From Candidatus Multivoradales bacterium (GTDB lineage: Bacteria; Acidobacteriota; Thermoanaerobaculia; Multivoradales; JAHEKO01): a stretch of 64,000 nucleotides of DNA. Of the stretch, positions 32,466 through 48,283 are shown piece after piece; position 1 is the stretch's first letter, and every line of letters starts with the position of its first letter. The notes beneath the pieces were generated by a model that worked only from the letters and a program-made list of their open reading frames with translations, did not search any database and was not told the origin of the DNA. The position numbers and the translations under genes were made by a program. The stretch lies in assembly GCA_965223155.1 (NCBI GenBank), contig CBDCVR010000015.1:416001-480000 (forward strand), read 5' to 3'.

Positions 32466-33237
32466 GCACCATGATCCTTTCTATCGCTTCCGCGCGGCCG
32501 GTGGCCTCGTCCACGGTCACGACACAGCCGGCCACGCGCACGTCCCTCTTGGCGATGTCGAAGGGAGTCGGCGTTTGCATGAGGAACCGCTCGATGATCT
32601 TGTCCCGGCGCACGCCGATCACCGACTCATAGGGACCGGTCATGCCGGCGTCGGTTTGAAAGGCGGTGCCCTCGGGCAAGATGCGCTCGTCGGCCGTCGG
32701 GATATGGGTGTGGGTCCCGACAACCGCGCTGACCCGGCCGTCGAGATAGAACCCGAAGGCCTGCTTCTCGCTGGTGGCCTCGGCGTGGAAGTCCACGAAG
32801 ATGACCTGCACTTCGCCCTCGAGCGACGCCAGCAGGCGATCCGCGGTTCGGAAAGGACATTCCAGCGAGGCCATGAAGACCCGTCCCTGGAGGTTCAGGG
32901 TCGCGACCCGGATCCCGGCTGCCGTCTCGCCGACGTAGAGGCCGGAGCCCGGATTGCCTTCTGGGAAGTTAGCCGGCCGCAGCAGGCGGGGTTCCTCCTC
33001 GAGCAGATCCTTCACCTCGCGCTTGTCCCAGACGTGATTGCCGGTCGAAAAGCAGTCGATGGGGAGCTCGGCCAGCTCTTCGAATACCGCGCGCGTCACT
33101 CCGAAGCCGCCGGCCGCGTTCTCGACGTTGACGATGACGTAGTCGGCGCGGTGGCGGTCGATGAGTCCGGCAAGCTCGCCCGCCAGAGCCCGCCTGCCGG
33201 GCTTGCCCACCACGTCGCCAACAAACAGGATCTTCAT
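32455..33237 (-). CDS. ymdB: YmdB-family metallophosphoesterase (TIGR00282-like)
   Basis: [47 protein letters not shown]. Confidence 0.96.
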
Positions 33238-34793
33238 TTTGCGTACTCGATGGACCGGGTCTCGCGGATCACCGTGACCTTGATCTGACCCGGGTAGGTG
33301 AGCTCGGATTCGACCTTCTTGGCGATGTCCCGGGACAGCCAGATGGCCTCCTCGTCGCCGATCTTCTCGCTGTCCACGATCACGCGAATCTCCCGGCCGG
33401 CTTGAATCGCGTAGCTCTTCTGCACTCCCTTGAAGCCCGAAGCCAGCTCCTCGAGCGACTCCAGCCGCTTGACGTAGGTCTCTAGAATCTCCCGGCGGGC
33501 GCCCGGCCGCGCCGCCGACAGCGCGTCGGCGGCGGTTACCAGAACCGCCTCCACGGTTTCCGGATCGTAGTCGCCGTGGTGACAGGCCATGGCATGAACG
33601 ACGTCTTCGCGCTCGCCGTGCTTGCGCAGGAGGTCGATGCCGATTTCGAGATGGGTGCCCTCCATCTCGCGGTCCACCGCCTTGCCGATGTCGTGCAGCA
33701 GGCCGGCCCGCTTGGCAACCGGCACGTTGGCCTTGAGCTCGCCCGCCATGTTCCCGGCCAGGAAGGCAACTTCCTTCGAGTGCTGGAGCACGTTCTGGCC
33801 GTACGAGGTCCGGTAGCGCAACCGGCCCAGGAGCTTCACCAGCTCCGGGTGGACGGTCGGGATGTTGAGCTCCAGCAGCGCCGCCTCGCCCTCCTGCTTG
33901 ATCTTCTCGTCGAACTCGGCCTTGACCTTGCCGACCACTTCTTCGATGCGGGCGGGATGGATGCGGCCATCGGCGACCAGCCGCTCCAGAGCGACCCGCG
34001 CCATCTCCCGGCGGTAGGGATCAAAGCCCGAGATGATGACCGCCTCGGGGGTGTCGTCCACGATCAGATCGACTCCGGTGGCGGCCTCGATGGCCCGGAT
34101 GTTCCGGCCTTCCCGCCCGATAATCCGGCCCTTCATCTCGTCGGACGGCAGCATGACCACCGAGACCGTGGTCTCGGAGACGTAGTCGGACGCCGCCCGT
34201 TGCACCGCCATGCCGACGATGCGCTGGGCCTCGGCGCTGGCCTTCTCACGAGCTTCGTCCTCGATGCGCTTGACCATGTGGGCCGCCTCCATGCGGGCTT
34301 CGGTCTCGAGCCCCTGGATCAGCTCGTCCTTGGCCTGCTGCGCCGTCAGGCCGGCCACCTGCTCCAACTTGCCGCGTTGAACAGCGACCAGCTCCTCGAG
34401 CTCAGTGTGCCGGTCTTCCACCGAACGCTCGCGCCTCGAGAGCTTCTTTTCACGCCGGCCGAACTGCTTTTCGCGCTGCCGCAGCTCCTGGCCGGTGGCT
34501 TGGAGCGTGTCTTCTTTTTGGAGGAGGCGGTTCTCGAGCTGTTCGAGCTCCTTACGCTGCTTGCGCGAGGCCTTCTCGAACTCGCCACGGGCCTGGAGGA
34601 GCTTCTCGCGGGCGGCCAGCTCGGCTTCCTTCAGCTTGGCCTCGCTGTCGCGCTCGGCCGCGTCCTGAAGGCGCTTGGCGTCTCCCTTGGCTCGAGCGAT
34701 CACTCCGCTCGCCGCCCGCCGCACGAAGAGCCACCACAGGACCGCCGTGAGGAGAATCGCGCCGCCCAGTCCGATCAGGACTTGTTCCGTCAT
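33234..34793 (-). CDS. rny: Ribonuclease Y
   Basis: N-terminal TM, coiled coil, KH domain ([14 protein letters not shown]), HD domain (LLHDIGK), [14 protein letters not shown]. Confidence 0.98.
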
Positions 34794-36504: not shown

Positions 36505-38325
36505 TCAGTCGCCGGGCGCCAGATGCGCCCGATCCGAGTCGCCCATCTCGACCCCCGAGGGGAAGTACTCGCGCCAGCGGCGGGTGACCCGCTCGGCAAT
36601 CTCCTCGGCGCAGAAGAGCTCGTCCGGGAAGTCCGGCTTGCGCCGGGCGTCGATCAGGATCGGAGCCCGGTAGGCGACGTGGTTGCGCTCGATCGCGGTC
36701 GCGCGGGCGTAGACGTCGCGCGCGGGCTCGAACTTGGTGAACGTCGACCAGAGGAAGTTCATCGACGACGCCAGGGTGCGCTCGGGCTCATCGGTCAGGA
36801 CCAGGAGAGGCCAATCCGAGAAGGCCGCCGCGGCCACGATCCGCTCCGGCAGACCCGCATCGTCGGCGGCGCCGCCCACGACCAGGCAGCCGCGGCAGAA
36901 CGGCTCGGCGTGCGTCGCCCCCGCCGGCAGCTCGGCCGGAGCCAAGGCCGACGGCAGCTCGCGCACCGGGTCGCCCAAGCCCAGCCAGATGCCCTTCGAG
37001 CCCTCGTTGACCACCGGACCGGTGTAGTCCAGTGTATCCATCGCCAGATTGGCAAGGACGAACAGGTCGGTCTCGGTCCGCGTGCGCTCGAGCACGTGCT
37101 CCAGGGTCGTCCGAAAGTCGGTGAGATCCACCGGCCGATCGGTCACCAGCAGGAACTTGGTGAGGGACAGTTGACCCTCACCCAGAATGCGGAAGGCGCT
37201 GGCCATGGCCTCGCGCTTGTAGCGCTCCTGGACGACCGCGGCCGCCAGCGAGTGATAGCCGGTCTCCCCATACGACCACAGGCTCCGGACGCCCGGCATG
37301 ACCAACGGAAACAACGGCGACAGGAGCTCCTGGAGCAGATCGCCGATGTAGAAGTCCTCCTGCCTGGGCTTGCCCACCACTGTCGCCGGGTAGATGGCGC
37401 CGTCACGGTGCGCCAAGGCGTCGATCTCGAACACCGGGTAGTCGTGGCGCAGTGAATAGTAGCCGTAGTGATCCCCGAACGGTCCCTCGGGACGGCGCTC
37501 GCCCGGCGGCACCTTGCCGATCAGGGCGAACTCGGCTTCGGCCAGCAGAGGATGGGCCCCGGGGCCGGCACACAGCGGCAGCCGGCCGCCGGTCAAGAGC
37601 GAGGCCAGGAGCAACTCGGGCACGTTCTCCGGCAGCGGCGCGATCGCCGCCAGGATCGCGGCAGGCGGCCCGCCGAGAAAGACCGTCGCCGGCAGGGCTT
37701 GCCCGCGCTCTTCGGCCACCGCGTAGTGGTACCCGCCACCCTTGCCGATCTGCCAGTGCATGCCGGTGGTGCGCCGATCGTGGACGTGCAGCCGGTACAT
37801 CCCCAGGTTATGCCGCCGCCGCTCACCCTCCGCCGTGGCCGGCTCCTCGGTATAGACGAGGGGCAAGGTCACGAACGGCCCGCCGTCTTCCGGCCAGGTC
37901 GTCAGAACCGGCAGCCGGTCCAGGCGCACGTCGGTCGTGACATTGGCGGTCACCGGTCCGCGCGCACGCCGCTTGAGACCCACACGCGCGAGCTGTCCGA
38001 GAGCGCCACGCGCCTGCCACAGCCGCGCGGCGCTCGGCGGCAGCAAGGTCTCGGCCAGCTCCACCGCTTGCTGGAGGAGCTCGAAGGGGCGGCTGCCAAA
38101 GGCCATCTCCGCCCGAGACCGGGTGCCGAAGAAATTCGTGGCGCAGCGAAATCGGCTTCCCCGAACCTTGTTGAAAACCAGGGCCGGACCACCGGCGGCG
38201 ATAACGCGGCGATGGATCTCCGCGATCTCCTGATCGGCATCGACCTCGACGTCGATCTCGACCAGATCGCCACGGCGGCGAAGCTCCGCTAGAAAGCTGC
38301 CCAGGTTTGGGAAGGTGACCGCCAT
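36505..38325 (-). CDS. UbiD-family prenyl-FMN-dependent decarboxylase
   Basis: EIAEIHRR, WPEDGGPFVTLP, NLGMYR, EGPFGDHYGYY, TVVGKPRQED. Confidence 0.93.
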   Translation of the reverse strand: MAVTFPNLGSFLAELRRRGDLVEIDVEVDADQEIAEIHRRVIAAGGPALVFNKVRGSRFRCATNFFGTRSRAEMAFGSRPFELLQQAVELAETLLPPSAARLWQARGALGQLARVGLKRRARGPVTANVTTDVRLDRLPVLTTWPEDGGPFVTLPLVYTEEPATAEGERRRHNLGMYRLHVHDRRTTGMHWQIGKGGGYHYAVAEERGQALPATVFLGGPPAAILAAIAPLPENVPELLLASLLTGGRLPLCAGPGAHPLLAEAEFALIGKVPPGERRPEGPFGDHYGYYSLRHDYPVFEIDALAHRDGAIYPATVVGKPRQEDFYIGDLLQELLSPLFPLVMPGVRSLWSYGETGYHSLAAAVVQERYKREAMASAFRILGEGQLSLTKFLLVTDRPVDLTDFRTTLEHVLERTRTETDLFVLANLAMDTLDYTGPVVNEGSKGIWLGLGDPVRELPSALAPAELPAGATHAEPFCRGCLVVGGAADDAGLPERIVAAAAFSDWPLLVLTDEPERTLASSMNFLWSTFTKFEPARDVYARATAIERNHVAYRAPILIDARRKPDFPDELFCAEEIAERVTRRWREYFPSGVEMGDSDRAHLAPGD

Positions 38326-38333
38326 GGTGACGA

Positions 38334-39353
38334 CTAGCCGGCCGCGCGCTCGAGTACCGGACGTCCCTTCGCGATGCGCGAATGGATGTCGTGGTAGATG
38401 GCGAAGACCCGGGCGCGGGAGATCTTGGAGCCCGGCCCCTTGGCCTCGACCCGATCCAGCGTCGCCCAAGCCAGCTCCACCGGCAGGGCGGTAAAGGCGA
38501 TCACTCCGGGGGGTCCTCCCGCGGCCTGAATCGCCCGTGAATACTCGGCGGCCGAGCGAAGGTCGGCCCGGGCCAACGCGAACACCTCGTCCCGATCGAC
38601 CCCGGGCGGAAGGAAGTTTCGTCCCTCGTCGGCGTCCTCGACGCTGTCCTTGAGGATGTTGACGAGCTGTAGCCCCTCGCCGAACGCCGAGGCGCGCTCA
38701 CGCAGGTAGTCCGCGGCGGGCGTCAGCGCCTCGCTGCCCAGAAGAAACAAGTCCGTCAGCATCTCGCCCACGATCCCGGCAACCGCGTAGCAGTAGGCCC
38801 TCAGATCGTCCAGGTCCTCCAGGCGAAGGACGCCGCCGTCGTCGGTCTTGGTCACGAACTCGGCCATCAGACGCGTGGTCCGCCGGGTGTGCTTCCGGAT
38901 GGCCTCGGCCGCGGCCGGATCGAGGTCCAGCAGAGCTCCAAAAACCGCGGGAGTCTCCGTCAGCAACTCGAGATAGCCCGGATGCTCGGTCGGCGGCTCG
39001 GCAAGCCAGACCGCGACGCGGCTTTCGACTTCGCTCCGCGACGGCTCGGCCAGCAGGCGGTCGAACTCGTCCAGGGCCCGCAGGCGCTGCGGGCGGCGCC
39101 ACAACACGCTCGCGTCCTCGAAAGTGTCCGCGATCCGGAACAGCAGATAGGAGATCGTGACCTCGCCCCGCGTCGGGTCTGGCAACTGAGGGATGGCCAG
39201 CGCGAAGGTGCGGCTGGTCTTGACCAGGAGATCCTGGAGGCGCTCGCCCCGAGCGGTGGCAAAGAGCTCGACGGCTCGGTCTCCCCCGCTTCTTCCGTTT
39301 CCCCCGTTTCCCCTGTTTCCGAAACCTCCGGATGGTGTCGCGACGTCCTTCAT
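38334..39353 (-). CDS. Squalene synthase (single-enzyme FDFT1-type)
   Basis: TSRTF flap, YLLFRIADTFED, YCYAVAGIVG, GLQLVNILKD..ED...GRNFLP. Confidence 0.85.
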   Translation of the reverse strand: MKDVATPSGGFGNRGNGGNGRSGGDRAVELFATARGERLQDLLVKTSRTFALAIPQLPDPTRGEVTISYLLFRIADTFEDASVLWRRPQRLRALDEFDRLLAEPSRSEVESRVAVWLAEPPTEHPGYLELLTETPAVFGALLDLDPAAAEAIRKHTRRTTRLMAEFVTKTDDGGVLRLEDLDDLRAYCYAVAGIVGEMLTDLFLLGSEALTPAADYLRERASAFGEGLQLVNILKDSVEDADEGRNFLPPGVDRDEVFALARADLRSAAEYSRAIQAAGGPPGVIAFTALPVELAWATLDRVEAKGPGSKISRARVFAIYHDIHSRIAKGRPVLERAAG

Positions 39354-39390
39354 ACCCGACGCCGATCCTAGCCTGGATCGGCGCAAGCGC

Positions 39391-40272
39391 TCACCCGTCG
39401 CGGCCGTCCCGCGACCGGGTCGAGTCCAAGCCGGCCGGGACCCGAGTCGCCCCGGCTTCCGCGCCCGCTGTCGCCGCGACTCTCGCCGCTTCCTCTGGCT
39501 CCGCGCAGCCGGAGGCCTCGAGAGCCGCCACCGCGGCCGCCAGGGCTCCGGCGCGATCCCCGTTTCCGATCCATGAAGGCACGCCGAACCGACTCAGTTC
39601 GAGGGCAGTTTCCAGCCGCAGCCGCATGCCGCCGGTGACGTCGCCGGCCGAGCCCACCGCGGCCGCCCGGACCGCGTCCAGGTTCGCCGCCGTGACCCGA
39701 TCCACCGGCGCGCCGGCGCCGTCCAGAATGCCCTCCGACCGGCCCAGCCAGATCGCTCCGGCAACCCCATGCCCCCGAGCCAGCAACCCCGGCAGCAGCG
39801 ACCTCAGCACGGTCTCGGTCGAGACGATACGAGGCTCGCCTTCTTCGGTCAGCGCCACGTCACCGTAGAGAACCGGCAGGTGGCCCGCGTCCAAAGCCGC
39901 CGCCACGGTCACCGCGCCGGCTCCACCCGCGGCCGGGCCGGTCATGAAGCTGCCCGGCGCCAGCGAGAACGGCTCGAGACCGGCTTCCAGAAGCGCGGCG
40001 ACGACGACGCGATGGAGCCGCGCCGCCGCGTCCTGGGTTCGCGAGACCGCCGAGATCTGCTGCGGCCGGCTCCGGCCGTCCCAGCCCGACTCGAGGGCGG
40101 CCCGGTGGCCGAACGAACCGCTGCCATGACCTAGAACGAAGCGTGCGGACGCGCCGGCCAGCTCAACCGCGAGCCGGTCCACGACCTCCCGGCGCACGGC
40201 CTCGTTTCCGGCCTTGTCGGTAATCAGGCTCCCGCCCCACTTGACCAGGAAGACCGGCGGACGCGGGCTCAT
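39391..40272 (-). CDS. Isopentenyl phosphate kinase (amino acid kinase fold)
   Basis: VKWGGSLITDK, HGSGSFGH (IPK signature His), PVLYGDV, DVTGGM; ATGA overlap with the upstream decarboxylase. Confidence 0.92.
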   Translation of the reverse strand: MSPRPPVFLVKWGGSLITDKAGNEAVRREVVDRLAVELAGASARFVLGHGSGSFGHRAALESGWDGRSRPQQISAVSRTQDAAARLHRVVVAALLEAGLEPFSLAPGSFMTGPAAGGAGAVTVAAALDAGHLPVLYGDVALTEEGEPRIVSTETVLRSLLPGLLARGHGVAGAIWLGRSEGILDGAGAPVDRVTAANLDAVRAAAVGSAGDVTGGMRLRLETALELSRFGVPSWIGNGDRAGALAAAVAALEASGCAEPEEAARVAATAGAEAGATRVPAGLDSTRSRDGRDG

Positions 40273-41306
40273 TGCCGCCCCTCCCGGCCGGGCTCGCCGT
40301 CGCGCTCCAGATGGCGCTCGCTTGCGCGCGGCCCGGTGCCCACCCGGTCGGCCAGCACCCGGACGACGCCGTCCAGCTCCGCAAGAGCGGCGCTCACCCG
40401 GACTTCGACGTCCGCCGGACAAAGAGCGTGGACGTTTGGCCCGGCATCGATCGTGGCGTAGACCGGGACGCCTTCCGCGCGCAGCTCGCGAATCCGCCAC
40501 AACACTTCGAGTGTGCCACCCTTCCAATAGTAGGTGGGCGGAGTCGAGGACATGGCAACGCGATGCAGATCCACCGCCTCGTCTTCGACCACCGCGCCCA
40601 GCTTCTGAATGTCGCGCTCGCGGATGGCTTCTTCGACGGCCCGGAGCCGATCCGGCAGCTCGGCCAGCCGCGGCTCGAACCTGGGACTGGTCGGCGCCCG
40701 CCGGTGGCCCTCGCGCGATGGCACGTCCTTGGCCGACTCGTCCACGATCGCGACCAAATCGCACAGAGCCCAATGATCGGCACCTGCCAGGACCTCGATA
40801 CCGTCGCCGCCGGCCGCCGCCGGCCAGCGCACGTAACCTCCAGCGACCGAGCGGGCCGCCGAGCCCGAACCGCTGAGCCGGGCCCAGCGGGACGCCTCGT
40901 TCAGATCCTCGGGCGGCGTTCCCAGAGCCTCGAGCGCCGCCAGGGTCAGGGCCGCGAACCCCGAGGCCGACGAGGCGATGCCGGCACCGGTCGGGAACGA
41001 GTTCTCGGTCAGGACCTCGAAGGAGCCGGCGCGGCCCGCCCGATCCCGCAGTCTGTTCAGATGGCGACGAACAGGGGCCACGAAACCCTCCGACGCCGGC
41101 TCGAAACCACCGCCCTCGCGCCGGAACCAGACCCGGTCCCGGCCGCCACCCCCGGGGTGGAAGGTCGCGGTACACGTCGAAACACAGCGGTCCAGGGTCA
41201 TCGAGATTGAAGGGTTGAACGGCTCGACGGTCTCGGCGTCGCGTGTGCCCCAGTACTTGATGAAGGCGATGTTCGACGGAGCGATGACGGTCGCTTGGGT
41301 AGGCAT
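40269..41306 (-). CDS. mvaD: MvaD-family GHMP decarboxylase, probably mevalonate 5-phosphate decarboxylase
   Basis: NIAFIKYWG, ENSFPTGAGIASSASGFAAL, ARLSGSGSAARS, TIDAGPNVH; adjacent to IPK with no PMK in the cluster. Confidence 0.9.
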   Translation of the reverse strand: MPTQATVIAPSNIAFIKYWGTRDAETVEPFNPSISMTLDRCVSTCTATFHPGGGGRDRVWFRREGGGFEPASEGFVAPVRRHLNRLRDRAGRAGSFEVLTENSFPTGAGIASSASGFAALTLAALEALGTPPEDLNEASRWARLSGSGSAARSVAGGYVRWPAAAGGDGIEVLAGADHWALCDLVAIVDESAKDVPSREGHRRAPTSPRFEPRLAELPDRLRAVEEAIRERDIQKLGAVVEDEAVDLHRVAMSSTPPTYYWKGGTLEVLWRIRELRAEGVPVYATIDAGPNVHALCPADVEVRVSAALAELDGVVRVLADRVGTGPRASERHLERDGEPGREGRQ

Positions 41307-41309
41307 CGG

Positions 41310-42452
41310 TCAGGTTTCCCAGCGCAGTCCGGGGCCGCCGAAGCCGCCCGGCACGGGAACGGTACCAGCCGGAAGAAGAGAGTCGGGATCGGGAAGGTCC
41401 CGGTAGCGGGGCCGAAAGACGATCAACATGCCGGCCGCCGCGCCGCTCAGGGCGCCGGCGCCCGAGATCTTGGCCGCGGCACCGGCCGCCTCGATCTCGA
41501 CGATGGCACGGGCCACCGGCTCCGGCACCACTCCGATCCGCTCCAAACATCGCTCGAAGCGCTTGACCGCGTCGAGCAGGTCCGGCCACCGGGACTCGCC
41601 TGCGGCGAGCGCCTCGGCGGCGGCGAGCGTCGCCTCGCCCATCCGGTCAAGCAAGGCGTCGAATTCCGAATCCTGGTCCTTGCGTGCGCGTACAGCCGCC
41701 ACCACCTCCCCAGTGGTCTCCACCGGCGTTCCCGTGTTGAAAGCCGCCAGACAGCCGTCGAGCCAGGAGGGCACTTCGAGCCGGGTCGACACCTCGAGAT
41801 AACTCGCCTCAGAGGCTCCGGAGCCGCCGGTCTCCATCCGACCGGCCGAGGCAGCCCCGGGCCGAAAGAGCTGCCAGCCGCCCTTCAAGACCGTTCGATG
41901 ATCCACGCCCGACGGCGTGCCGTGCTGGCGGCGCTCGGCTTCCTCCGCGATCACGGCCACCAGGTCGGGGTCGGGCCGGCCATCGGTCGCCACCACGAAG
42001 GCTCCGGCTACCGCCACCGCGACCGAGGCCGAGCTTCCCAGGCCGGCACCCACCGGTAGCTCCGAGCCGAGGTGCACGTCAAGGGACGGCAGCTCGGCGG
42101 CGGGCCTCTCGGTCGCCTGGACCGACTCGGCTAGAACGATCTTGACCACGCTCGCCGGATCGGTCGTGCGCAAGGCCTCGAACCGCTCCGGGCTGGGATC
42201 GGCTCGGTACCGGCGCCAGCATTCACGCCGCTCGGCGCCGAAGCGCAAGATCTCGGCCCAGGCCACGGTTTCCTCGTGGCCGAAGGTCTCCAGGCAAAGC
42301 CGCACTGCAGCATCGGTCCCGCTCTTGTCCCCGCGCCTCGCGATCCGGCACCGGGTACGCAGATCCAGCGCCGCCACCAGGGCCGGCCGGCCGTAGACCG
42401 CCGCGTGCTCGCCCATCACGATGAGCTTGCCGGGTGCGCTGGCGACGGTCAT
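41310..42452 (-). CDS. mvk: Mevalonate kinase
   Basis: SAPGKLIVMGEHAAVYG, PVGAGLGSSAS, HGTPSGVD, KISGAG. Confidence 0.95.
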   Translation of the reverse strand: MTVASAPGKLIVMGEHAAVYGRPALVAALDLRTRCRIARRGDKSGTDAAVRLCLETFGHEETVAWAEILRFGAERRECWRRYRADPSPERFEALRTTDPASVVKIVLAESVQATERPAAELPSLDVHLGSELPVGAGLGSSASVAVAVAGAFVVATDGRPDPDLVAVIAEEAERRQHGTPSGVDHRTVLKGGWQLFRPGAASAGRMETGGSGASEASYLEVSTRLEVPSWLDGCLAAFNTGTPVETTGEVVAAVRARKDQDSEFDALLDRMGEATLAAAEALAAGESRWPDLLDAVKRFERCLERIGVVPEPVARAIVEIEAAGAAAKISGAGALSGAAAGMLIVFRPRYRDLPDPDSLLPAGTVPVPGGFGGPGLRWET

Positions 42453-42461
42453 CGCTGGCAG

Positions 42462-43733
42462 CTAGCGCTCGACGGAACCGCGCCCGAGCTCCTGATGGGC
42501 CCTCGCCAGATCTCGCGTGGTGAAGGCGGCCATCAGCGAGAGTTCGCCCGCCAGCACCGCGGCCCCGAGAATCTCGGCCAGACGCATCACCGCCTCGCCC
42601 GGACGTTTGGGCACGGCCGGGATGCCGAGCAGGTCCAGCGCCTCGCGCTGGGTATCGAGCGAGGTTCCGCCGCCGACGGCCCCCAGGGGCAAGTCGGGCA
42701 AGAACACCGACGCCCGCACCCCGTCCTCGCCGTGCGGCTCGATGCTGGTGACGCCCATGGCTCCTTCCACGACCTGCGCCGGATCCTGGCCGGTGGCGAT
42801 GAAGAAGGCGGCCAGCACATTGGCGAAGTGGGCGTTGAATCCCATCGACCCGGCGGCGATCGAGCCCATCAGGTTCTTCCGGTATTGCACCTCGCGCAGC
42901 GCGGCCGCCGTCGTCTTGAGCCGCTCCCGAAGCACTTCGGCTTCCAGAACCACGTCGGCGTGAACCCGCTTGCCCCGGCCCTCCAGGAAGTTGACCGCCG
43001 AGGGCTTCTTGTCGACGCAAAAATTTCCGGAGAGCGCAATGCACGGCAGGCCGGTCTCGGGCTCGATCAGATCCGAGACCACCCGATCGCAGGCCACCGT
43101 GGCCATGTTCATGCCCATGGCGTCGCCGCAGCGAAAGCGGAAGCGCAGATAGATCGACGAACCGATGACCTGCGGCCGCAGATCTTGGAGCTTCAGGAAG
43201 CGGCTGGTGCTCTCGGCTACCTCCCGAATCCGGTCTTCGTGCTCCGCCACCCAACTCAGGAATCCCTGGGTCGCGTCGAGCCCCTCGGAACGGAACACCG
43301 GTGCCCTCGTGATGCCCACGTCCTCGACGGCGACGGTCGCGCCGCCGGCATCGCGGATCGCACGGCAGCCGCGGTTGGCGCTTGCCAGGAGCGCGCCTTC
43401 GGTGGTCGCCATCGGCACGTAGATCGACTCCTCGGGCGAGACGAAGCGCCCGCGCACAGAGAGTGGGCCGATCACGCCGATCGGCACCTGCGCCGCCCCG
43501 ATGAAGTTCTCGCAATGGCGGGCCGCCGCGCGAGCCGCGTCCAGGCCGTAGCCGCCGGTAGCCTCGAGCGACGTTCCGGTCAGCCGCTCGAGCGCGGTGC
43601 GGCGGACCCAGGCAGCATCGTCGGGCTCGAGATCTCCCGGCAGCTCGTGGAGCCGGCGGGAGCCCTCCACCACCTCAGTGACCAGGGATTCCAAGTGTTC
43701 CGTTGCGCTCGCGCCAGCTCGCTTCCCAGCCAT
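42462..43733 (-). CDS. hmgA: HMG-CoA reductase, class I (NADPH)
   Basis: CENFIG, VPMATTEGALLAS, GDAMGMNM, SGNFCVDKK, TGQD, GELSL, C-terminal His. Confidence 0.97.
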   Translation of the reverse strand: MAGKRAGASATEHLESLVTEVVEGSRRLHELPGDLEPDDAAWVRRTALERLTGTSLEATGGYGLDAARAAARHCENFIGAAQVPIGVIGPLSVRGRFVSPEESIYVPMATTEGALLASANRGCRAIRDAGGATVAVEDVGITRAPVFRSEGLDATQGFLSWVAEHEDRIREVAESTSRFLKLQDLRPQVIGSSIYLRFRFRCGDAMGMNMATVACDRVVSDLIEPETGLPCIALSGNFCVDKKPSAVNFLEGRGKRVHADVVLEAEVLRERLKTTAAALREVQYRKNLMGSIAAGSMGFNAHFANVLAAFFIATGQDPAQVVEGAMGVTSIEPHGEDGVRASVFLPDLPLGAVGGGTSLDTQREALDLLGIPAVPKRPGEAVMRLAEILGAAVLAGELSLMAAFTTRDLARAHQELGRGSVER

Positions 43734-44761
43734 CAGTCCCAGCCCTCCACCAGCGGCGTCTCTTGGAGCTCGCTCACCGAGCCGGCGCCGGCGCAGAACA
43801 TCGCGATTCTGAGCTCCCGCACGAAGGCCCGCGCCCGCGCCACCGTTTCCTCGGCGGAGACGTCGGCGCCCTGCAGAAAGGGCTTGGCGGCGCCGACGAG
43901 ATCGGCGCCGAGGGCGATCGCTTTGGCCGCGTCGATGCCGTTACGTACCCCGCCGCTGCCAATCACGGTCAGGCCGCCGAGGGCACGCAGCTCACGAATC
44001 GACCGCGGCGTGGGCACGCCCCAGCCGGCGAAAAGCTCGCCGAGCGCGAAGTCGTCGGCCCGGCTCGCCTCGATCCGGGCCCAGCTCGTACCTCCCAGTC
44101 CCGACGTGTCCAGAATCGTGAACCCGGCCTCCCGCAAACGCCGGCCGACGTCGCGCGACAGGCCGCAGCCCACTTCCTTGACGATCACCGGCGCGTCGAG
44201 CGCCGCGGCCACCTCCGCCATCTGGGCCAGCAGACTCGAGAAGTCGCACTGCCCCTCCGGCTGAATGGCTTCTTGGAGGGGATTCAAGTGAAAGACGAGG
44301 GCGTCGGCCTCGATCATGTCGACCGCCCGCCGGCACTCGTCGAGACCGAATCCGTAGTTGAGCTGCACCGCGCCCAGATTGGCCAGGAGGGGCACGCTCG
44401 GGACGAGCTCGCGAATCCGGAAGCTCTCGGCCTGGGAGGGATCCTCGATCGCCTTGCGCTGCGATCCCACGCCGATCGCGATGCCCACCTCCTCGGCGGC
44501 CAGCGCCAGATTGCGATTGATGCGGCCGGCTTCTTCGGTCCCGCCGGTCATGCACGAGATCAGAAGCGGAGCTGCGAGCTCGCGCTCCAGGAAGCGCACG
44601 CCGAGATCGATCGCCCCCATGTCCAGCTCGGGCAGGGCATCGTGCTCGAAACGCAGGCCATCGAAGAAGTGCCCGTCGAGCTGCATGCGATCGTCGAGCG
44701 CAAGCTGGATGTGCTCCTGCTTGCGGTCGCGCTCGCCGGCGTCGCCTCGGTGCCCGGTCAA
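43733..44761 (-). CDS. fni: Type 2 (FMN-dependent) isopentenyl-diphosphate delta-isomerase
   Basis: RKQEHI, MTGG, GVGSQR, HLNPLQEAIQPEG, KEVGCG, GGTSW; TTG start overlaps the upstream stop. Confidence 0.96.
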   Translation of the reverse strand: MTGHRGDAGERDRKQEHIQLALDDRMQLDGHFFDGLRFEHDALPELDMGAIDLGVRFLERELAAPLLISCMTGGTEEAGRINRNLALAAEEVGIAIGVGSQRKAIEDPSQAESFRIRELVPSVPLLANLGAVQLNYGFGLDECRRAVDMIEADALVFHLNPLQEAIQPEGQCDFSSLLAQMAEVAAALDAPVIVKEVGCGLSRDVGRRLREAGFTILDTSGLGGTSWARIEASRADDFALGELFAGWGVPTPRSIRELRALGGLTVIGSGGVRNGIDAAKAIALGADLVGAAKPFLQGADVSAEETVARARAFVRELRIAMFCAGAGSVSELQETPLVEGWD

Positions 44762-45858
44762 TAGTCGCGGTCTCCGAGAAAATCGACCAGCGCCTCCAGA
44801 AAGGCCCGACCCTGAGCCTCCAGGGTCAACGCCACCAGAGCCTCGCGGGCGATGTCGAGCCGTTCGGCGACCATCATCTCCACCGCCAGCTTGGCGCCGC
44901 TCGAGGCCACGACGGCGCGCACGCGATCCAGCGTCTCGGCCGTCACCTCGGGGTCCCCGAGGGCCTCGAGCACCACCTGCCGTTCGGGCCCCGCTGTCCG
45001 TTCCAAAGTCTGCTGAATCAAGACCGTGTGTTTGCCCTCGGCGATGTCCGAGTCGACCGACTTGCCCACGGTCTCGCTGCTGCCAAAGACACCGAGCAGG
45101 TCGTCGCGGAGCTGGAAGGCCTCGCCCAAGACCCGCCCGTAGCGGGCCAGGCCCTGGCGGTTCTCCGGTGAAGCGCCCGCGGCCAGAACACCCAGCTCCA
45201 GCGGCCGCTCGACCGAGTAGCGGCCGGACTTGAGTCGCAGGATTTGAAGTAGGGCATCGCGATCGAGCGCGCCGCGAAACGGCGCCGTCATCTCCAGATA
45301 CTGTCCCAGCACCACTTCCTGGCACATCGCGGCGAAGGTGCGGCCGAGCTCGGGAACCGCAAAGGGCCGGGAACCCTCCAGAAAGAGCTCCACGGCGTAG
45401 GCGTGCGCCAGATCCCCAAGCAGAATCGCGACCGATTCGCCATGCCTGGCGGCGTCTCCCGGCCAGCCCCGATCCCGATGGTCCTGCTCGAAGGCCCGGT
45501 GAGCGGTGGGCTTGCCGCGCCGCACCTCGGCATCGTCCATGATGTCGTCGTGCATCAGCAAGTACGCTTGGAGGAGTTCGGTGGAAAGCGCCAGCGGCAG
45601 GATCGCCTCTTCGTCTTCGCCGCCGGTCGCCCGGTAGCCGAAAGAGACCAGCGCCGGTCGCAGTCGCTTGCCGCCCCGCCCCACGAATTCCCTGAGCCTC
45701 GAAGTCAGCTCCAGGACGTCTTGGTTGGACTCCGCCAGCGCCCTCTGCTCGCGCTCGGCGAGCCAGGCGTCAATCCGCTGGGTAGCCGTGTCCCGGAAGT
45801 CCGCCAGCAGGGGCTCCAGAGCGGGCGCTACGTTGGCCTTGAGGGTTGGGCTCGACAA
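44758..45858 (-). CDS. Short-chain polyprenyl diphosphate synthase (FPP/GGPP, IdsA-like)
   Basis: GGKRLRP, FARM HDDIMDDAEVRRG, GQYLE, FQLRDDLLGVFG, DIAEGK. Confidence 0.95.
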   Translation of the reverse strand: MSSPTLKANVAPALEPLLADFRDTATQRIDAWLAEREQRALAESNQDVLELTSRLREFVGRGGKRLRPALVSFGYRATGGEDEEAILPLALSTELLQAYLLMHDDIMDDAEVRRGKPTAHRAFEQDHRDRGWPGDAARHGESVAILLGDLAHAYAVELFLEGSRPFAVPELGRTFAAMCQEVVLGQYLEMTAPFRGALDRDALLQILRLKSGRYSVERPLELGVLAAGASPENRQGLARYGRVLGEAFQLRDDLLGVFGSSETVGKSVDSDIAEGKHTVLIQQTLERTAGPERQVVLEALGDPEVTAETLDRVRAVVASSGAKLAVEMMVAERLDIAREALVALTLEAQGRAFLEALVDFLGDRDY

Positions 45859-45989: not shown

Positions 45990-47549
45990 TCATTTTATCT
46001 TCTGGCCGCTCTCTGGGCTCGGCGTGGATGGCGGCCCCAGTCCAGACCCCAGTCCAAGCCCGACCCCGGCCGTCGCCGAACCCGCCGCCAGGAACATCTC
46101 CGACAAGCGCACCGGCAGGCCTTCCGACGGTTGCCCTCTCGGGACAGCCAGGCCGGCTGGATCGGCCAGGACGGCCAGATCGGAAAGCAGAAAGCCGACC
46201 GAGGCCTCGCGCGATAGGGCCCCGTGCGTCCAGCGCAGGCGGCCGCCGGTCAGCCGCGCCGCCCGCTCGGTCGCGCGCGCGCCGTACATGTAGCCGGTCG
46301 CCGTCGAGCACACCACGGTCGCCGGATTCTCGACCCGCTCGAAGCTGGAGTGAATCCGCGCAAGGCCGTCCGGGAACGCCGCCGCGGTCGTCTCGCGGAG
46401 CCAGTCCCGGTCCGCGAACCAACCCGGACGCTCCAGGTCGTCCTTCGAGCCACCACGACCCAAGCGCTCGAGCACGACCCGGTAGCCCAGGGGGTCTCCG
46501 GCAACCGGCACGTAGGACCAGGCGGCCGCCGATTTCCGGATCGTGGCGAGACCGCCGCTGCTGACGACCCGCACCGCATCGTTCCCATCGTCCTTATCGT
46601 CCTCATCGTTGGCCGAGCGGTGAGCGCAGAGCTCTACGCCCTCAACCGAAGCCAGGATGGTCGCCAGCTTGGCGCCCAACTCGGGCGCCGAGTAGGCCTC
46701 GAAGCTCGAGACCAGGCCGTACGGAGTGAGCACGACGTCTCCGCGCGCCAGGCTCTCGCCGGCCCGGAGGCCGTGCTCCACGAAGGCGCGACGGACACCC
46801 GGCAGCACGTTGACCAGGGGCCGCCCCCCGGACATACCGTGATCCGAAAAGACAACAAATCGGAGCCGGCGGCCGCTGTCGCTCCGGGCCTTCGCGATCG
46901 CCCGCCCCAGCCGGATGAAGGTCTCGTCCAAGGACTCCGGACCCTTCAAGTGCGCCGCGGTGTCGGTGGTCTCGACGTACGCGAAGTAGCGCGGTTGGGT
47001 GGAGGCCACGAAGTCCCGCACGGCTCGCTCGACCCGGCGCTCGCTGGCCTTGACCGGCCTCAGGCTGGCCACGGCGCTCCGCGCCACGCCCTTCTTGCTC
47101 CAGTCGAAGAAGTCCCGCCAAGGAAACGCAATCTTGAAATAGCTGACCGGCCCGCCGCCCCGAGCCTTGCGCCGGCGCCAGTCGAAGAAGCGAGCCTCAT
47201 AACCCGGTGAGCGCTCGAGGCCCAGAGGTTCGAAGGCCGCCGCCAGGGCGACGCTGGTGGTCGAGGGAAAGGTGCTGACCAGCGGTCGGGGGCCGCCCAG
47301 CTCGGCAAAAAGCTCGGCGGCGACGCCACGCCGCTCGAGATCGACGACATACGAGTAGGGCACGGCGTCGAGGGTCAGGTACAGGACCGCGGGCGGAGCG
47401 GCGGGTTCCGGTCCGGGCGATCCGCGACCTTCGACCTCCGACGACGAGGCGGCTACCGCCATCCAGACCGAGACCAGGATGGCGATCGCGGCAACCCGGG
47501 TCCCGGCCAGCGCCCACGGTGGCCTCCCGTCTCGGATCGGCCGGATCAC
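45990..47549 (-). CDS. Alkaline phosphatase/NPP-superfamily protein with N-terminal signal or TM segment
   Basis: LTLDAV, STFPSTT (Thr nucleophile), TDTAAHLKG, FSDHGM, THGAL; GTGA overlap with the hpnG stop. Confidence 0.75.
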   Translation of the reverse strand: MIRPIRDGRPPWALAGTRVAAIAILVSVWMAVAASSSEVEGRGSPGPEPAAPPAVLYLTLDAVPYSYVVDLERRGVAAELFAELGGPRPLVSTFPSTTSVALAAAFEPLGLERSPGYEARFFDWRRRKARGGGPVSYFKIAFPWRDFFDWSKKGVARSAVASLRPVKASERRVERAVRDFVASTQPRYFAYVETTDTAAHLKGPESLDETFIRLGRAIAKARSDSGRRLRFVVFSDHGMSGGRPLVNVLPGVRRAFVEHGLRAGESLARGDVVLTPYGLVSSFEAYSAPELGAKLATILASVEGVELCAHRSANDEDDKDDGNDAVRVVSSGGLATIRKSAAAWSYVPVAGDPLGYRVVLERLGRGGSKDDLERPGWFADRDWLRETTAAAFPDGLARIHSSFERVENPATVVCSTATGYMYGARATERAARLTGGRLRWTHGALSREASVGFLLSDLAVLADPAGLAVPRGQPSEGLPVRLSEMFLAAGSATAGVGLGLGSGLGPPSTPSPESGQKIK

Positions 47550-48283
47550 GCCCAGACCTCGTCGATCGTGCGGGCCAGGCCCGCCATCAGGCCTCGAGCC
47601 CTCGCCCGGAACTCGACGAGAGCCGGCACGGTCCAGGGCCGGGCCAGAGCCGCCGCCAGTACCCGGCCACGCGAGAGCCGCCCCCGTCGATCGACCGCCC
47701 GGGCCACGGGTCCGGGCAGCGACTCGTCGAGTGTGTCGCTCACGACTCGGAGAACAACGTAGGGCACTTCCGCCCGATTCGCCAGAGCCGCCCAGCGACC
47801 GCTCTCCATGTCCACGACCGCTGTCTCGCCGGCACCGAATCTCGCTCCCAGCTCGCGCTTGTCGCGGGCGCGGGCGACGATCGTCGGAGAGGTCACGAAG
47901 ACCCCTTCGCGGGCACCGGCCGCCAGAAGCGCCTGCCGGCGCTCGGGCCGCGGATCCGCGAGCTCGTGGCCTCCGACTCGGGGCAGGGCGGCTCCCGCCA
48001 GGGCGGCGGCGAGGACCCGGTCGCCGGTGGCAAGATCGGGAGTCAGAGCACCGGCCAAGCCGGTGAAGAGCACTTCCGAAGCCGAGGCCAGCGCCCGATC
48101 CAGACCCTGGGGCGCGGCCGCGGCTCCCGCCCCGGCCCGCACCATGAGCACGCTTCCCCCGGGGCACTCGCCCCGCCAGGCCGGCAAGCCCTCGATCCGA
48201 GCCGGCCTCAGGCCCCAATGCCCGACCAACGGCCCGGCCTCCTCAGGAAGGGCACAGACCACAGCCAGGTCCGCCGAGCTCAT
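47546..48283 (-). CDS. hpnG: Hopanoid-associated nucleoside phosphorylase/nucleosidase
   Basis: PNP/MTAN fold: ALPEEA, TGLAGAL, VDMES, LRVVSD; located within the hpn cluster. Confidence 0.85.
   Translation of the reverse strand: MSSADLAVVCALPEEAGPLVGHWGLRPARIEGLPAWRGECPGGSVLMVRAGAGAAAAPQGLDRALASASEVLFTGLAGALTPDLATGDRVLAAALAGAALPRVGGHELADPRPERRQALLAAGAREGVFVTSPTIVARARDKRELGARFGAGETAVVDMESGRWAALANRAEVPYVVLRVVSDTLDESLPGPVARAVDRRGRLSRGRVLAAALARPWTVPALVEFRARARGLMAGLARTIDEVWA

Follow-up and report, generated by a model that had tools for sequence, protein, structure and literature searches.

We report that a 64,000-nucleotide stretch of the genome of Candidatus Multivoradales bacterium, a member of the Thermoanaerobaculia (Acidobacteriota), carries a gene for a homolog of the mevalonate pathway decarboxylase MvaD that is directly followed by a gene for an isopentenyl phosphate kinase (IPK). 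This stretch (assembly GCA_965223155.1, contig CBDCVR010000015.1, positions 416,001 to 480,000) is referred to as the window, and the positions of the genes within it are given in its numbering. The MvaD homolog, P0001 (345 amino acids; 40269-41306, minus strand), matches PF22700 (129.8 bits) and PF18376 (49.6 bits), and IPK (293 amino acids; 39391-40272, minus strand) was assigned on the basis of PF00696 (66.1 bits), the motif HGSGSFGH and its matches in the Protein Data Bank (PDB). As the initial annotation of this DNA had noted, the two genes overlap, and we observe directly that they share four nucleotides (40269-40272, minus strand): bases 40272-40269 read ATGA, with the ATG of IPK at 40272-40270 and the TGA of P0001 at 40271-40269, and a Shine-Dalgarno-like GGGAGGGG is located just upstream of the IPK ATG. 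The ATGA overlap suggests that P0001 and IPK are translationally coupled. A gene for mevalonate kinase (MVK; 380 amino acids; 41310-42452, minus strand) ends 3 nucleotides before the start of P0001; its product scored 133.3 bits against TIGR00549 (cut-off 163.05) and just 26-27 bits against the models for phosphomevalonate kinase (PMK). These genes are part of a run of eight head-to-tail genes on the minus strand (36.5-45.9 kb) that overlap or are at most 10 nucleotides apart, in which MVK and P0001 are the only members of the GHMP family, in keeping with the earlier remark that the cluster has no PMK.

P0001 has YWGT at residues 18-21 (context IKYWGTRD) and SREGH at residues 197-201 (context PSREGHRR), both of which had been read correctly before, and T21 and H201 occupy the positions of the Lys and the Met, respectively, of the classical diphosphomevalonate decarboxylases (MDD, also DMD). 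Y18, S147, S149, R152, K193, S197 and D287 are kept across all groups of homologs in our residue table, and D287 aligns with Asp280 of the phosphomevalonate decarboxylase (MPD, also PMD) of Anaerolinea thermophila, AthPMD (PDB alignment, and a figure legend in PMC9254496). With the residues of catalysis and of the ATP side kept throughout, P0001 should, as judged from its sequence, be an active enzyme. Among all PDB chains the best match was 6n0x (228.8 bits, E 8e-67, P0001 residues 4-330), which according to the legend of Fig. 5 in PMC9254496 is the A. thermophila PMD with mevalonate 5-phosphate (MVA-5-P) bound; the best classical MDD was 5v2l (157.6 bits). In the printed alignments 6n0x has YWGN/STQGH and the otherwise identical 6n0z has YWGK/STQGM, and from these two chains and the title of Thomas et al. 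2019 (ACS Chem Biol 14:1767) we infer that 6n0z was engineered by the substitutions N-to-K and H-to-M. The same two positions distinguish 6n0x from 6n0z, which supports the initial suggestion that the loss of the Lys and the presence of the His correspond to the situation in the Chloroflexi MPDs. Moreover, the Anaerolinea PMD (6n0x/6n0y; variant 6n0z) and P0001 have in common the His at the Met position, the lack of a Lys in YWGx and the Ser/Ser/Arg/Lys/Asp catalytic set, whereas the residue at the Lys position differs (Asn in 6n0x, Thr in P0001).

A search of 5.8 billion proteins identified 119 close relatives of P0001, all of which have His201 and a residue other than Lys at position 21 (Ala in 52, Thr in 44, Ile in 19 and others in 4), and Lys and Met are present at the two positions in 30 of the 30 Lys/Met-type homologs that we identified among 80 named loci (see below). 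For 150 representatives of clusters formed at 50% identity the combinations were non-Lys plus His in 43, Lys plus His in 54, Lys plus Met in 39, and a gap or other residue in 14. Some homologs (P0125, P0126, P0157, P0168, P0184, P0185, P0206 and L050:7992-10418) are 600-880 amino acids long with the match to P0001 in one half, which may reflect fusion to a different pathway enzyme.

The product of the downstream gene has the features of an IPK. The histidine of HGSGSFGH is kept, as had been pointed out: the motif covers residues 49-56 and its signature residue, His56, matches His60 of the M. jannaschii enzyme. The motif contexts are VKWGGSLITDK and GHGSGSFGH, with DVTGG close to the C-terminus, and the residues K11, G13, G14, K20, G50, H56 and DVTG are all present when compared with Table 2 of PMC3857490. 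IPK entries make up the first seven PDB matches (3lkk among them was deposited as 'gamma-glutamyl kinase related protein'), and FomA comes last. The score against the IPK model NF040647 was 105.5 bits, i.e. under the cut-off of 120 bits; for the IPKs of relatives we obtained 122.1 bits (same genus) and 127-166 bits (the other 21 from the same phylum).

On the basis of its sequence and gene context we consider it very likely that P0001 is an MVA-5-P decarboxylase (EC 4.1.1.99 type) that works together with IPK, with a substrate preference and chemistry that would follow those of its homologs, the assayed Roseiflexus and the solved Anaerolinea enzymes. Specifically, MVK, encoded just upstream, would make MVA-5-P, and P0001 would move the gamma-phosphate of ATP onto the 3-OH of MVA-5-P, after which phosphate and CO2 would be lost to give isopentenyl phosphate. 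IPK would then phosphorylate isopentenyl phosphate to isopentenyl diphosphate (IPP), which would be taken further by two other products of the run, the type 2 isomerase and the prenyl synthase. Table 4 of PMC3857490 lists Lys21 (S. epidermidis MDD numbering) among the diphosphate-binding residues of the classical enzymes, and Thr21 would remove this Lys, which in those enzymes touches the terminal phosphate of mevalonate 5-diphosphate (MVA-5-PP). The role of His201 would be that indicated by the 6n0x/6n0z pair and by PMC11052028, which names a 'Conserved histidine residue of PMD'.

The same residues bear on the possibility that P0001 is a decarboxylase of intermediate specificity, which takes both MVA-5-P and MVA-5-PP and serves as an MPD here only for want of a PMK. 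A Chloroflexota enzyme with DMD and additional PMD activity is mentioned in PMC11052028 (citing Thomas et al. 2019), but the 'MDD' of Roseiflexus turns over MVA-5-P with undetectable turnover of MVA-5-PP, according to Dellas et al. 2013 (PMC3857490), and P0001 is missing the Lys with which the classical enzymes contact the diphosphate. We regard dual specificity as improbable, and physiologically it would amount to the same as an MPD.

The window is located on the longest contig (1.31 Mb) of the genome, which has a size of 4.0 Mb, a completeness of 98.66% and a G+C content of ~70%; this contig also carries a gene for HMG-CoA synthase, ~42 kb past the window. Genome-wide, four genes matched GHMP_kinases_N: a galactokinase (TIGR00131, 274 bits), MVK, the MvaD homolog and a gene for a 341-amino-acid protein (C15:~579.4-580.4 kb, minus strand), which has heptose-phosphate and sugar kinases as best PDB matches (81 and 68 bits) and no PMK among its PDB matches. 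The PMK models TIGR01220 and NF040957 gave no match in the genome at E<=0.001, where TIGR01220, used in a six-frame search, is a weak model the cut-off of which was never reached in the control genomes. The animal-type PMK model PF04275 gave no match either, and this search is uninformative because no control genome matched it. A PMK elsewhere in the genome, which the initial annotation had held would, together with a grouping among classical MDDs, speak against an MPD, was not found in these searches: none of the four GHMP genes is PMK-like and the models were silent. One MVD-like gene is present. IspH and Dxr gave no match in the genome and IspE was not among the four GHMP matches, so isoprenoid precursors appear to come solely from the mevalonate route in this genome, and this route is complete only if the decarboxylase accepts MVA-5-P.

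A different explanation of this gene content would be that P0001 is a classical MDD, that its PMK escaped detection, being either a non-homologous kinase or encoded in the 1.3% of the genome that is unassembled, and that IPK only salvages isopentenyl phosphate. The limited sensitivity of the PMK searches and the unproven substrate of the fourth GHMP kinase leave some room for this, but that kinase is closest to heptose-phosphate and sugar kinases and not to PMK, and the Lys and Met of the 30 Lys/Met homologs are both replaced in P0001. Together with the gene order in other members of the phylum (see below) this makes the explanation very unlikely in our view. The orphan 341-amino-acid GHMP kinase gene adjoins an M23 peptidase gene, and the best matches of its product are kinases of capsule and lipopolysaccharide pathways.

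To compare gene content across the family, a 40-sequence alignment was used to scan genome contigs; this gave 580 confirmed relatives, the best 80 of which (the named loci, which are related sequences and not independent trials) were classed by the two key residues. Since the TIGR01220 cut-off was never reached in the controls, E-values and gene adjacency were used for PMK. In the non-Lys/His class (n=40, including L080 with a gap at the first position) an IPK over the NF040647 cut-off was present in 33 genomes and a TIGR01220 match at E<=1e-6 in 5 (28-40 bits), and in the Lys/Met class (n=30) the corresponding numbers were 0 (best 61.2 bits) and 29 (best stretch 43-344 bits). For the six Lys-or-Arg/His loci these numbers were 1 and 3, and for the remaining four (NM, FM, LM and NN) they were 3 and 2. 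Hence, IPK accompanies the non-Lys/His type of decarboxylase and PMK accompanies the Lys/Met type. Two further non-Lys/His genomes have IPK matches below the cut-off, L013 (114.7 bits as protein, directly downstream) and L026 (two neighbouring pieces, 78.8 and 73.8 bits), and IPK was not found in 5 of the 40 (L018, L045, L046, L055 and L080). The sole Lys/Met locus without a TIGR01220 match (L074) ends at a contig edge. The five TIGR01220 matches in the non-Lys/His class are weak, and three of them adjoin the IPK gene, as MVK would; the matches of L032, L038 and L075 (<=32 bits) are in the range of MVK cross-matches. On the contig of L060 there is a PMK-like match of 46 bits at another place.

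Downstream open reading frames (ORFs) were scanned for 57 of the 80 loci, the others having no ORF, a distant ORF only, or a contig end at this place, and for L009 and L069 the downstream neighbour was read from match coordinates. A PMK-like ORF was found downstream in 22 of the 57, all of them Lys/Met loci, and IPK was directly downstream in all seven members of the clade to which the window belongs (L008-L014) as well as in L024 and L028. The latter two are from metagenome-assembled genomes titled Gammaproteobacteria (L024:7998-9814, genome size 1.3 Mb) and Planctomycetota (L028:7983-9769), in which a non-Lys/His decarboxylase is followed by an IPK scoring 202 and 137 bits, respectively.

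The genomes of the Anaerolineae-type relatives that were checked usually have an IPK and no PMK, as is the case here. The arrangement differs, however: in the Chloroflexota-labelled genomes RseP is downstream of the decarboxylase in 10 of the loci scanned and IPK is mostly on another contig, whereas here IPK overlaps the decarboxylase stop. This RIP metalloprotease gene lies directly downstream of the decarboxylase in L020-L022, L027, L029-L031, L038, L054 and L075, and the pairing is conserved. In two homologs from Anaerolineaceae (L038:3438-4427 and L075:8001-8972) the Lys position is taken by Phe or Leu and the His position by Met; the two fall inside the Chloroflexota His clade and are exceptions to the His rule, and the L075 genome has an IPK (167 bits).

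The Lys-plus-His class is a sizeable one, as the cluster representatives illustrate, and it includes two genomes of the candidate phyla radiation (CPR) in which the decarboxylase is adjacent to a PMK-like gene with no clear IPK; in others the searches gave no PMK and no IPK. The substrate of such homologs (e.g. L016, L019, L032, L057, L072 and L025) is unreadable from the two key residues.

The phylum of the window gave the same picture. P0001 was searched against 301 genomes spread evenly over the Acidobacteriota, its own included, which resulted in 29 matches at E<=1e-20. A homolog with 49-65% identity is present in 22 other genomes, i.e. in 10 of the 11 from the same order and in 12 from other classes (families f13, f32 and f47), and in all 22 an IPK over the cut-off is directly downstream, at 23-413 nucleotides (between match ends). 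No PMK-like match above 30 bits was detected in these 22 genomes, the single 29.6-bit match being at the MVK position. The homologs in five genomes are 40-43% identical to P0001, and there a PMK-like gene is directly downstream in 5/5, while 0/5 have an IPK; in a further genome, G122, the match is partial (46%), IPK is located far from it and nothing PMK-like was matched. The decarboxylase-IPK arrangement is thus common to a sizeable Acidobacteriota clade. This also argues against a classical MDD, since those genomes of the phylum that do have a PMK carry the other decarboxylase type with PMK directly downstream, in the place where the 22 relatives of P0001 have IPK. IspH was over the cut-off in 9 of the 22 (G199, G085, G266, G276, G286, G316, G376, G243 and G364), and these nine relatives may run both the methylerythritol phosphate and the alternative mevalonate routes; in the other 13 IspH is absent, as in the genome of the window.

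P0001 scored 349.6 bits against a profile of non-Lys/His homologs and 300.6 bits against a Lys/Met profile, each of which was built from 30 homologs, with the clade of the window excluded from the non-Lys/His set; all eight clade members scored higher with the non-Lys/His profile, by 41-53 bits. A quick IQ-TREE tree was calculated for 81 proteins (P0001 and the 80 named homologs; the Roseiflexus, Haloferax, Staphylococcus and yeast enzymes and any assayed one are outside this set). The 30 Lys/Met rows are all on one side of a branch with a Shimodaira-Hasegawa-like approximate likelihood ratio (SH-aLRT) of 91, and P0001 is on the His side. Its clade (SH-aLRT 99) comprises eight rows; of the seven other loci in it, one carries the title Gemmatimonadota and six are titled Thermoanaerobaculia or Acidobacteriota. 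This clade is set apart from those of the Chloroflexota and lies close to the CPR rows with Lys or Arg plus His. The tree weakly suggests a placement of P0001 away from the classical enzymes.

Several of our data weigh against the assignment of P0001 as an MPD. The deep branches of the tree are weak (SH-aLRT 80-91), and joining the P0001 clade to the Lys/Met group was not rejected in the approximately unbiased (AU) test (lnL difference 18.3, p-AU 0.24); because of this result, which allows a position beside the classical enzymes and as such favours a classical MDD, the functional call was not rested on phylogeny. The presence of the His is insufficient as a marker, given that PMK-like genes adjoin the decarboxylase in the CPR Lys-or-Arg/His genomes L016 and L019. 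The line in bits between PMK and cross-matches of MVK was drawn once the data had been seen, and the gap (43 vs 40 bits) is narrow. At the position equivalent to Ile27, where Arg or Thr is expected of MPDs, P0001 has Val27. This is the position of Arg83 in Roseiflexus (Table 4 of PMC3857490), and it is also an Arg in 6n0x, six residues after the Lys position. The seven named clade members have Ala (5), Gly (1) or Val (1) here, and the close relatives have Thr (46), Ala (44), Val (28) or Gly (1); among other non-Lys/His homologs there are 21 with Arg and 10 with Asn.

Family models are a further point on this side. P0001 reached 123.9 bits against the NCBIfam model for PMD, NF040704 (IPP_alt_MvaD, of Haloferax type), with a cut-off of 475, and is therefore outside this NCBI-defined equivalog family. 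It passes TIGR01240, 'diphosphomevalonate decarboxylase', with 194.4 bits (cut-off 171.35), as a classical MDD would. Annotation pipelines name P0001 diphosphomevalonate decarboxylase because TIGR01240 is passed, and the named relatives are all labelled in this way by NCBI or JGI, just as the initial annotation had anticipated for automatic annotation. PMD and DMD are described in the literature as often misannotated. With this label, the classical pathway would look interrupted in a reconstruction of the metabolism of these Acidobacteriota, PMK being absent and IPK having no explanation.

The last gene of the run encodes a UbiD-family decarboxylase (36505-38325, minus strand, with an ATG at 38325; PF01977, PF20696 and PF20695; TIGR03701, 445.2 bits, cut-off 495.9). 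Its superfamily is also that of the archaeal anhydromevalonate-phosphate decarboxylase, and AcnX gave no match in the genome. Since this gene is a neighbour, the archaeal dehydratase route was considered, and it was rejected in view of the lack of an AcnX match and because the UbiD gene is nearest to the menaquinone decarboxylase model TIGR03701. More generally, an alternative route other than that via MVA-5-P decarboxylation, whether the archaeal UbiD-type route or one of Thermoplasma type via mevalonate 3,5-bisphosphate, would be compatible with the UbiD gene and with IPK, which is common to all three alternative routes. We judge this extremely unlikely, given that P0001 reached only 30.4 bits against the model for the Thermoplasma-type decarboxylase of mevalonate 3,5-bisphosphate (NF040847, cut-off 560), that the genome has one MVD-like gene and hence no mevalonate 3-kinase paralog, and that MVK is present.

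Decarboxylation of MVA-5-P by P0001 would thus represent a known type of pathway, in which decarboxylation comes first and phosphorylation second. Haloferax volcanii reportedly has both a PMD and an IPK, as VanNice et al. are said to have described in 2014. Its pathway is of the same type as that proposed for the window, i.e. the haloarchaea-type mevalonate route. As in the window, the Roseiflexus castenholzii MPD was annotated as 'MDD', has a residue other than Lys at the Lys21 position and occurs with an IPK and without a PMK, according to PMC3857490. The host phylum differs, as do the residues given there as Arg83, Ala201 and Thr255, which correspond to Val27, Ser147 and Ser197 in P0001. 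The classical bacterial MDDs that occur together with PMK (Enterococcus 5v2l; Staphylococcus 2hk2/3qt5) share the fold and the catalytic residues with P0001 but differ in having the Lys and Met signature and PMK as partner, and in P0001 IPK takes the downstream position of PMK.

What is new is most likely the host phylum, which is uncredited in the literature searched. This search covered sources other than subscription papers and supplements, and in the accessible parts of PMC6107057 (2018) and PMC11052028 (2024) Chloroflexi/Chloroflexota are the only bacterial host named. Within the same scope nothing was found that pairs Thermoanaerobaculia with mevalonate, nothing apparently relevant by title or abstract on Acidobacteria and isopentenyl phosphate kinase, and, among the matches listed for the names of the enzyme since 2019, none on Acidobacteria by title or start of abstract. 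If P0001 is an MPD, the route of haloarchaea/Chloroflexi type extends to a second large bacterial phylum and the pathway in this genome is closed, which bears on the evolution and spread of the late mevalonate steps; moreover, the compact high-GC eight-gene operon is on offer for pathway engineering. As a more speculative proposal, which we put forward only tentatively, the Acidobacteriota enzymes might be a lineage of their own among the MVA-5-P decarboxylases and bind the single phosphate in a way unlike that of the Chloroflexi enzymes, with small residues at the Lys21 and Arg83 equivalents, a conserved His-Arg-Arg after SxxG and IPK locked in the operon. The His types would account for most of the sequence diversity of the family, and the decarboxylate-first route, or a third specificity class with Lys plus His, might accordingly be far wider in bacteria than the searched literature states.

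Upstream of MVK the run includes, on the minus strand, genes for an HMG-CoA reductase of NADPH type (423 amino acids; 42462-43733; PF00368, 390.3 bits; TIGR00533, 442.8 vs a cut-off of 441.8) and a type 2 IPP isomerase (43733-44761; TIGR02151, 374.4 bits; likely start TTG at 44761). The first gene of the run encodes a short-chain polyprenyl diphosphate synthase (44758-45858, minus strand; PF00348, 178.1 bits; no NCBIfam model over its cut-off). Directly 3' of IPK, and followed by the UbiD-family gene, is a gene of the squalene/phytoene synthase family (38334-39386, minus strand; PF00494, 124.3 bits; TIGR01559, 89.9 bits, under its cut-off). Upstream of the operon there is a 742-amino-acid ORF (45990-48218, minus strand) with a weak match to type I phosphodiesterase as its sole match (22.7 bits, under the cut-off). 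An RNase Y gene is present at 33234-34793; among the 120 matches listed for its product, all eight that bear a name are from Thermoanaerobaculia or Acidobacteria(ota), with identities of 72-82%. In several relatives RNase Y and MvaD homologs are apparently co-located, which suggests conserved synteny.

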